DNA of 28,826 nt, taken from the IMG/VR virus record IMGVR_UViG_2541047699_000005; one strand, given 5' to 3'. The stretch comes from a virus (taxonomy: Duplodnaviria > Heunggongvirae > Uroviricota > Caudoviricetes). The notes below the pieces were generated by a model that did no database searches, had not been told where the DNA came from, and was given only the letters and a program-made list of their open reading frames with translations. The stretch's first letter is position 1, and each line of letters starts with the position of its first letter. A program made the position numbers and the translations under genes. Positions 15,401-16,800 of the stretch are shown here, in pieces.

Positions 15401-15513
15401 GTTTTCTCCTCATGGACACCACCAGTGCATAAAGCAGCAACTGAAGTGGTTTACTGAATTTGGCCACCTGAACAGAGGTGATATGCTCACCTCAGAACAA
15501 CACAGGTGCCATA

Positions 15514-15816
15514 ATGAAAAAAAGAAATTTCAGCGCAGAGTTTAAACGCGAATCCGCTCAACTGGTCGTTGACCAGAATTACACCGTGGCAGATGCAGCC
15601 AGCGCTATGGATGTCGGCCTTTCCACAATGACGCGATGGGTGAAACAATTACGTGATGAGCGGCAGGGAAAAACACCAAAAGCCTCCCCTATTACCCCGG
15701 AACAAATTGAAATCCGTGAGCTCAGGAAAAAGCTACAACGTATTGAAATGGAAAATGAAATATTAAAAAAGGCTACCGCGCTCTTGATGTCAGACTCCCT
15801 GAACAGTTCTCGATAA
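15514..15816 (+). CDS. IS911 OrfA (helix-turn-helix / leucine-zipper transposition regulator)
   Basis: ATG at 15514 gives [50 protein letters not shown]... (100 aa). Confidence 0.88.
15765..15771 (+). promoter_or_regulatory. IS911 programmed -1 frameshift heptamer A_AAA_AAG (OrfA to OrfAB)
   Basis: Zero-frame codons TTA AAA AAG near the end of orfA; the -1 frame is open from here through orfB ([15 protein letters not shown]...). Confidence 0.8.
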
Positions 15817-16661
15817 TCGGGAAACTCAGGGCGCGTTATCCTGTGGCCACTCTCTGCCATGTGTTCGGGGTCCATCGCAGCAGCTACAAATACTGGAAAA
15901 ACCGTCCTGAAAAGCCAGACGGCAGACGGGCTGTATTACGCAGCCAGGTACTTGAACTGCATGGCATCAGCCACGGCTCTGCCGGAGCAAGAAGCATCGC
16001 CACAATGGCAACCCAGAGAGGCTACCAGATGGGGCGCTGGCTTGCTGGCAGACTCATGAAAGAGCTGGGGCTGGTCAGCTGTCAGCAGCCGACTTACCGG
16101 TATAAACGTGGTGGTCATGAACATGTTGCTATCCCTAACTACCTTGAACGGCAGTTCGCCGTGACCGAGCCAAATCAGGTGTGGTGCGGTGATGTGACCT
16201 ATATCTGGACGGGTAAGCGCTGGGCGTACCTCGCCGTTGTTCTCGACCTGTTCGCAAGAAAACCAGTGGGCTGGGCCATGTCGTTCTCGCCGGACAGCAG
16301 GCTTACCATGAAAGCACTGGAAATGGCATGGGAAACCCGTGGTAAGCCCGTCGGGGTGATGTTCCACAGCGATCAAGGCAGTCATTATACGAGCAGGCAG
16401 TTCCGGCAGTTACTGTGGAGATACCGGATCAGGCAGAGTATGAGTCGGCGTGGAAACTGCTGGGATAACAGCCCAATGGAGCGCTTCTTCAGGAGTCTGA
16501 AGAACGAATGGGTGCCGGCGACGGGCTATGTAAGCTTCAGCGATGCAGCTCACGCAATAACGGACTATATCGTTGGATATTACAGCGCACTAAGACCGCA
16601 CGAATATAATGGTGGGTTACCACCAAACGAATCGGAAAATCGATACTGGAAAAAACTCTAA
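15771..16661 (+). CDS. IS911 OrfB (DDE integrase-core transposase, made as the OrfAB transframe protein)
   Basis: -1 frame relative to orfA; contains the rve-type catalytic core (WCGDVTYIW...[10 protein letters not shown]...). The ORF track lists it from the in-frame GTG at 15843. Confidence 0.85.
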
Positions 16662-16800
16662 CTCGGTGGCCAGTTTTTGTTGACCACTTCAAACAAACAG
16701 CCCGACAGCATCAGAGACGCTGGCAGACCTGCATACAGATAAACGCCAGCAGTGAGCAAACCGAAACCGATCAGCCCGGTCATATCAGTAATAAGCTGTT

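Follow-up and report, generated by a model that had tools for sequence, protein, structure and literature searches.

The stretch of DNA analysed here, referred to as the window, comprises 28,826 nucleotides of a caudoviricete genome and carries a late operon on its minus strand. In the direction of transcription, the order is Q, three tRNAs, holin, YdfR, lysozyme, Rz, HNH, terS, terL, an insertion sequence (IS), portal, protease, capsid and the tail genes, so that the lysis genes are positioned upstream of the IS. The large terminase gene terL (16801 to 18558, minus strand; PF20441 and PF03354) immediately precedes the IS in late transcription, and the portal gene (14174 to 15400, minus strand; PF04860, E = 3e-100) follows it. 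The product of the Q gene (23177 to 23872, minus strand) is assigned to the Q antiterminators by PF06323 (E = 8.5e-91), and would govern the operon in which the IS lies. Its gene content is that of a lambdoid late operon dependent on Q, the processivity conferred by Q being taken from its family. A search of the PDB yielded no sequence relative of the Q protein with a solved structure.

The IS occupies positions 15442 to 16691 on the plus strand (1250 bp) and is bordered by two copies of the trinucleotide AAC (15439 to 15441 and 16692 to 16694). It thus runs opposite to the phage genes, which lie on the minus strand, as had been described in an initial annotation of the window. That annotation placed the insertion, with its repeats, at 15439 to 16693. 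The start is correct, and the end falls one base short, the right AAC ending at 16694. Likewise, the distance of 41 bp from the IS to the portal ATG agreed with the measurement, and the distance from the terL stop is 109 bp instead of 110 bp.

Integrity and identity of the element

The element is structurally intact. It begins and ends with 5'-TG...CA-3', reading TGAAGTGG... to ...CCACTTCA. The inverted repeat on the orfA side (IRL, 15442 to 15477) is the same as the left end of the IS911A fragment of Escherichia coli K-12 and differs from the IRL of Shigella dysenteriae IS911 at positions 9 to 11 (TTT versus CAC between the element and IS911). The right repeat (IRR, 16656 to 16691) matches, as its reverse complement, 36 of the 36 positions of IRRa, an oligonucleotide representing the IRR of IS911 in published biochemical work on the transpososome (PMC2909936). 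The two terminal repeats are imperfect relative to each other, with matches at 25 of 36 end positions, and a repeat-finding tool reported arms of 27 nt with 78% identity.

Two overlapping reading frames lie between these ends. The first, orfA (15514 to 15816, plus strand), encodes 100 amino acids with a helix-turn-helix domain (HTH_Tnp_1, PF01527, E = 6e-14), and 99 of the 100 residues are those of OrfA of S. dysenteriae IS911. Towards its end, an A_AAA_AAG heptamer (15765 to 15771), in the phase of orfA, provides a programmed -1 frameshift site. The orfB frame (15761 to 16661, plus strand, 299 codons) is open in the -1 phase from an AUU codon at 15761, just 5' of the heptamer, to the stop at 16659 to 16661, and contains the rve/DDE domain (PF00665, E = 1e-31). 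The predicted frameshift fusion, OrfAB, has 382 amino acids and no internal stop. In its translation, 35 residues separate the second D (FHSDQG) from the E (SPMERF), which corresponds to the DD(35)E spacing. OrfAB also scored 380.6 bits against the NCBIfam IS3 transposase profile NF033516, for which the cut-off is 160, and covered profile positions 1 to 368 of 369. The hallmarks of the IS3 family are thus all present: a length in the range of 1.2 to 1.5 kb, TG...CA ends, open reading frames in two phases joined by an A6G site, an N-terminal helix-turn-helix, a C-terminal DD(35)E (rve) domain and a target-site duplication of 3 to 4 bp.

The inverted repeats, intact orfA, A_AAA_AAG site and open orfB frame had each been pointed out in the initial annotation, and all were found in the sequence. 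Its suggestion that the element looks transposition-competent can be retained in the form of an apparently competent IS3-family element of the IS911 type. Copies at least 99% identical to it were present in 940 records, identical ones occurred at many different loci, and a single genome may hold the element at up to 25 places. The element is therefore probably still mobile.

The name of the element requires some attention. Over its 1250 bp, it shows 100% identity with numerous copies on E. coli chromosomes and plasmids whose product PGAP labels "IS3-like element ISEc52 family transposase". Within the plasmid collection, the ISEc52 label is attached to full-length copies of 97 to 98% identity and the IS911 label to a copy of 94.2% identity on an S. 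dysenteriae plasmid. Aligned directly with the copy in S. dysenteriae NCTC 9718 that PGAP labels IS911, the element showed 94.2% identity, with 72 differences in 1250 columns, and the two OrfAB proteins are about 96% identical. For the copy annotated as IS911 in phage Sf6, nucleotide identity to the element is 94.9%. In ISfinder practice, about 95% nucleotide identity marks the line between isoforms and distinct IS names. IS911 in the strict sense therefore lies just beyond the element by nucleotide identity (94.2% and 94.9%), although the IRR agrees fully (36/36). Given the complete identity to ISEc52-labelled copies and the values just below 95% against annotated IS911, the element is named ISEc52 here. 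By current annotation, it is ISEc52, a close relative of IS911, and this name rests on the PGAP labels. In practice, the name IS911 is applied loosely, as two K-12 fragments called IS911A are 98.5% and 95.6% identical to the element. The description "complete IS911" in the initial annotation consequently holds for completeness and for the IS911 type, and not for IS911 proper, since copies of the latter reach 94.2 to 94.9% against 100% for the ISEc52-labelled copies.

The insertion event and the interrupted gene

The state of the locus before the insertion could be reconstructed by comparison with related prophages. A prophage of E. coli strain M1/5 is collinear with the window over 27.3 kb, with 99.96% identity for positions 1 to 15441 and 99.98% for positions 16692 to 28582. 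The IS with its target-site duplication is the sole structural difference between the two. Moreover, the two alignments share three bases of the M1/5 sequence, which demonstrates the 3-bp duplication directly, and the alignment with APEC O1 showed the same pattern at the empty site. The flanks of the window both align onto the single AAC that the M1/5 and APEC O1 prophages carry. A chance occurrence of this trinucleotide on either side of the IS was considered and ruled out on these grounds. For elements of the IS911 type, 3 bp is the size of duplication made by the copy-out/paste-in pathway. The simple insertion with a 3-bp target duplication proposed earlier is thus borne out, AAC being doubled here and single in both uninterrupted prophages.

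The empty site itself is widespread. A query of 1200 nt, consisting of 600 nt from each flank joined without the IS and with a single AAC, matched more than 38 E. coli genomes at 100% over its whole length, including APEC O1, M1/5 and ST131 strains. At least 80% of the query was found in one place in 630 complete E. coli genomes, and phage records such as vB_EcoS-611R1, vB_EcoS-689R5, PhiR49_2, Evi and others contained it at 98.7 to 100%. In contrast, a junction-spanning query of 1750 nt found the insertion in 0 of 5426 complete E. coli genomes, and the exact 34-nt pattern of the left junction occurred in none of three contig collections (genome, viral and metagenome). The insertion looks private to the source strain within the collections searched, and recent, because its junction occurs in none of them. 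The initial annotation had named, as a result that would overturn it, the presence of the 1.25 kb as native DNA at this position in related prophages. None of the 5426 genomes carried it there, and 630 held the empty-site sequence. The two comparisons it had proposed, with IS911 and with prophages lacking the insertion, gave 94.2 to 94.9% identity and uninterrupted prophages in M1/5 and APEC O1, respectively.

As for the origin of the copy, the M1/5 genome has 14 places matching the element. One of them, identical at 1250 of 1250 positions and in the opposite orientation, lies in the distal end of the M1/5 prophage itself, at a distance of about 19.5 kb. A distal prophage copy of the M1/5 type is a plausible donor. 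Were such a copy also present in the source genome, the two would form 19.5-kb inverted repeats through which the head-tail module could invert.

The insertion site had been regarded as a spacer between terL and portal, but the IS in fact lies inside an open reading frame of 53 codons. In the reconstructed site, this minus-strand frame begins with a GTG that shares bases with the terL stop (GTGA), and its end reaches 11 nt into the portal gene. For APEC O1 and M1/5, RefSeq lists the native product of 53 amino acids as the hypothetical protein WP_000811487.1. Among the PHROG families, phrog_7105 aligned with its whole length (E = 9e-20), and phrog_502, annotated "membrane protein", matched with E = 1e-6. 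Searches of Pfam and NCBIfam gave no match. The sequence of the protein, which is hydrophobic and has a basic tail, fits two membrane helices. In Edwardsiella phage EPP-1, an open reading frame of equal length, with the same overlaps of 4 nt and 11 nt, is located between a terL-sized gene and the portal gene. Between the two small frames, identity is 54% for the protein and 65% for the DNA, codon position 2 being the least changed, and the adjacent portal proteins are 80% identical. Because of the PHROG matches and the EPP-1 counterpart with its identical length and overlaps, the small frame is taken as a real gene. On this comparative evidence, the space between terL and portal is a conserved gene translationally overlapped with both neighbours.

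This gene has been destroyed by the IS. The cut falls after codon 37 and removes 16 of the 53 codons, and with them half of the second hydrophobic helix. What remains at the 5' side is a truncated frame (16658 to 16804, minus strand) with its GTG start, 37 native codons and 11 codons encoded by the IS. The displaced 3' remainder, codons 38 to 53 and the stop, is found at 15390 to 15440 on the minus strand, where its last 11 nt are shared with the start of portal. The protein might be essential for morphogenesis.

Proposed read-through, possible polarity and the state of the prophage

The reading which we favour, with a probability of about 60%, is that of a recent ISEc52 insertion through which late transcription continues, leaving the downstream genes expressed. 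In this reading, a copy of ISEc52 recently transposed into the late operon of a lambdoid prophage with an HK97-type head, in an E. coli strain close to M1/5, generating the AAC duplication of 3 bp upon insertion. It landed in the conserved 53-codon frame, predicted to encode a two-helix membrane protein and linking terL to portal, and split it after codon 37. RNA polymerase modified by Q, and thereby resistant to termination, would then read through the IS in the antisense direction. Since the portal gene has a ribosome-binding site of its own, such read-through would allow portal and the head and tail genes downstream to be expressed still, perhaps at a reduced level. The Shine-Dalgarno sequence of portal, GAGGAG, indeed falls within the 41 bp retained between the IS and the ATG. 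Occlusion of this site by the IRL sequence was considered and rejected, as its predicted accessibility is unchanged by the IS (0.436 versus 0.433). An outward hybrid promoter was also sought by eye at the other end of the element and rejected. The TTGACC of the IRR (16680 to 16685) has no -10 hexamer at a spacing of 17 bp, and a promoter there would be antisense to terL.

The IS had previously been described as likely polar on portal, protease, capsid and the tail genes, with the possible consequence that no virions are made. According to this explanation, transcription would end within the 1.25 kb of untranslated RNA, by a Rho-dependent or an intrinsic mechanism, and none of these genes would be expressed. 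Several features would be compatible with it. The IS is antisense and splits terL from portal, and its antisense RNA of about 1.25 kb is probably untranslated and has a C/G ratio of 1.13, compared with 0.78 in terL and portal. It also includes a C-rich, G-poor patch, a candidate rut-like region, near 16390 to 16510. Furthermore, translation of the small frame now ends 34 nt into the IS (stop at 16658 to 16660), leaving a long stretch free of ribosomes. Such an RNA would invite Rho-dependent termination if antitermination were incomplete or the polymerase unmodified.

Intrinsic terminators on the minus strand of the IS were examined as further evidence for polarity and rejected, as there were two weak matches without excess over shuffled sequence (2 terminator-like hairpins against 1.9 expected). 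On the other hand, terminator-like hairpins also lie between Q and holin, and late transcription dependent on Q would already have to cross them. Minus-strand sites with a hairpin and a T-run, candidates for a promoter-proximal terminator of the tR' type, were located there at about 23113 to 23085 (read directly), 22702 to 22685 and about 22476 to 22443, the scan hits not exceeding the shuffled expectation. Their position suggests that the polymerase arriving at terL would already be resistant to termination. The Q protein of lambda is a documented suppressor of polarity, and a 2025 review describes RNA polymerase loaded with Q proteins as becoming highly processive. In phage Sf6, an antisense IS911 upstream of Q has no measurable influence on late transcripts. 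With an operon antiterminated by Q and this precedent from Sf6, the earlier claim was overstated, and strong polarity on the downstream virion genes is unlikely; we would give it perhaps half the weight of an even chance. Loss of virion production is possible and is not the most likely outcome. The arrangement of the operon also speaks against selection of the insertion as a means of disarming the prophage. With the lysis genes upstream of the IS, even full polarity would not spare the induced host, and there would be no gain in host survival for selection to act on.

The prophage could also have been inactivated independently of polarity, through the loss of the 53-amino-acid protein, provided that head assembly, packaging or lysis timing depends on it, or through the loss of translational coupling into portal, which would disturb the stoichiometry of portal. 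The length of the frame and the geometry of its overlap beside portal are kept across genera, it belongs to PHROG families, and the missing 16 of 53 codons include half of a hydrophobic helix. However, the PHROGs class of phrog_502, "moron, auxiliary metabolic gene and host takeover", points to an accessory role, and the frame lacks a Pfam or NCBIfam match. Portal, for its part, retains a strong Shine-Dalgarno sequence of its own. Inactivation by this route is regarded as improbable.

Finally, an origin of the 1.25 kb as native phage DNA, or as an artefact of repeat-induced misjoining, is very improbable. Nothing specific speaks for it beyond the ability of repeats such as the multicopy ISEc52 to confuse assemblers. 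The junctions are base-exact at the IS termini, a misassembly would not produce a clean duplication of 3 bp that are single-copy in the empty site, and none of the related prophages in the genomes and phage records searched has the IS at this position.

If the read-through proposed in the favoured reading holds, the costs of the insertion are the loss of the small protein, the loss of translational coupling into portal and an additional 1.25 kb to be packaged. The HNH and P27-type terminase genes point to packaging from cos sites, in which case the additional DNA would have to fit the capsid, unlike in Sf6, which packages by the headful mechanism. The prophage may moreover be defective, in excision for example, for reasons apart from the IS, as the integrase of the near-identical M1/5 prophage is annotated as frameshifted; the integrase gene lies outside the window. 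Taken together, hitch-hiking of a neutral or mildly deleterious kind is the most fitting description of the insertion, in preference to a designed or selected inactivation.

A further step would be that the prophage is still inducible and packages its genome with the IS, and is thus an IS-carrying temperate phage for whose virions the small protein is dispensable. This is conceivable and rather doubtful. If true, such a phage could carry ISEc52 in active form from one E. coli strain to another, and it would constitute a natural knock-out showing that the phrog_7105 protein is dispensable for virion production. Beyond annotation, the importance of the locus is small, as it adds another instance of an IS in a prophage. 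Nevertheless, as a recent IS movement private to one strain, it is a possible lineage marker among the relatives of M1/5. It also draws notice to a conserved 53-codon gene for a predicted membrane protein, wedged between terL and portal. This gene looks unannotated, and automated as well as human readers easily take its place for an intergenic spacer. Lastly, the locus provides a natural setting in which to see whether late operons are protected from the polar effects of an IS by Q antitermination, in the way that Sf6 and its IS911 suggest for an early operon.

Comparison with known systems

Elements of the IS911 type have been found in several phage genomes, with identities to the present element of 94.9% in Sf6, 94.6% in SfII and 99.8% in Salmonella phage SEN22, where the antirepressor gene is affected. 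A close parallel is Sf6. In this viable phage, IS911 lies within ninG, upstream of the Q gene, and its transposase genes point against early-right transcription. In both cases, an IS911-type element disrupts a small gene of a lambdoid or P22-like genome, ninG being non-essential, and is antisense to an antiterminated operon, upstream of genes required for growth. Deletion of IS911 in evolved lines of Sf6 was followed by no rise in late-gene transcripts (PMC5630979). The two cases differ in that the Sf6 element sits in the N-dependent early-right operon of a headful-packaging phage, whereas the operon considered here is a Q-dependent late operon in a phage that probably packages from cos. The Sf6 precedent thus concerns antitermination of the N type, not the Q type, and headful packaging tolerates extra DNA.

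Lambdoid prophages with an IS among their packaging and head genes are also known from E. coli O157 Sakai, in which, for example, the defective prophage Sp4 has its nu1 gene disrupted by an IS as part of prophage decay (PMC2669165). There, an essential terminase gene is broken, whereas in the window terL and portal are intact and only the small open reading frame is cut. The Sakai prophages were considered as a precedent for IS polarity and set aside, since only the IS-disrupted nu1 is reported, which has no bearing on polarity (PMC2669165).

With regard to the element itself, IS911 of S. dysenteriae is the model for copy-out/paste-in transposition in the IS3 family. The two share the length of 1250 bp, the layout of orfA, A6G site, AUU codon and orfB, an OrfAB protein of 382 amino acids and the 3-bp duplication. 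They differ by a nucleotide identity of about 94%, by positions 9 to 11 of the IRL and by an OrfAB identity of about 96%. The element therefore works like IS911 and is a member of its immediate group. Compared with ISEc52 (IS3 family, IS3 group), there is no difference at all in sequence, and the insertion site alone is new. In this respect, the locus presents a known element doing a thing already known of it, namely insertion into a prophage with a duplication of 3 bp.

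Copies of ISEc52 beyond the window

A second copy of ISEc52 is found in E. coli M1/5, outside the window, at about 3965-5214 of locus L008 (NZ_CP053296.1, about 2093565-2094814), and it is identical to the window copy at 1250 of 1250 positions. Within the near-identical M1/5 prophage it occupies the distal end, in reverse orientation to the new insertion and some 19.5 kb away from that site. A distal copy of the M1/5 type is a possible donor of the insertion in the window. If the source genome carries both copies, they would form inverted repeats, and inversion of the head-tail module could occur. 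Further copies were found in the strains H70 (NZ_CM190152.1, 3118263-3119529) and H109 (NZ_CP029421.1, 26145-27394). They lie within or adjoin phage structural genes, one for the major capsid and one for the tail, and insertion of ISEc52 into prophage structural modules is therefore recurrent.

Early region and integrase

The final 244 bases of the window (28583-28826) diverge from the M1/5 prophage, and strains HR5-1 and HR12-1 match the window to its end (99.8% over 16692-28826); this stretch of the early region looks like a mosaic joint. A type I toxin gene of the hokD type is also present in the early region. Both M1/5 and APEC O1 have it annotated, and its place in the window, about 25726-25881 (minus strand), follows by correspondence with 26035-26190 of L005, the M1/5 prophage locus. 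In the M1/5 prophage, the integrase (L005 38035-39085, outside the window) is annotated as frameshifted. Excision may already be defective in this lineage, independently of the IS.

Other features of the late-operon region

The interval separating Q from the holin gene contains three tRNA genes carried by the phage (22717-22966, minus strand): Arg-tct, Arg-tcg, and one with a CAT anticodon, which is called Met by ARAGORN and Ile by PGAP (in M1/5). The APEC O1 prophage carries other tRNAs at the equivalent position, namely Gly, Thr, Lys and Ile. From the Q stop to the holin gene, three hairpins with T-runs (about 23113-23085, 22702-22685 and about 22476-22443) are all on the strand of the late transcript (minus). 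Their sequence is consistent with tR'-like terminators that would require Q read-through.

Further along, a segment of about 1.1 kb (19539-20673) is shared with M1/5 and HR5-1, while the APEC O1 prophage lacks it. The segment looks like a moron: it includes a YfbU-family ORF (19677-20216, plus strand; PF03887, phrog_6084) between the HNH and Rz genes, oriented against the late operon.

The small ORF at the terL/portal junction

The IS splits a small ORF of 53 codons (16658-16804 and 15390-15440, minus strand), uninterrupted in APEC O1 (L001 16549-16710) and M1/5 (L005 16952-17113). The ORF is conserved, and its predicted product is a two-helix membrane protein (phrog_7105/phrog_502). It is easily misread as an intergenic spacer; terL and portal flank it tightly, with overlaps of 4 and 11 nt. 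The identical overlap arrangement is seen for the small ORF of Edwardsiella phage EPP-1 (L006 2380-2541).
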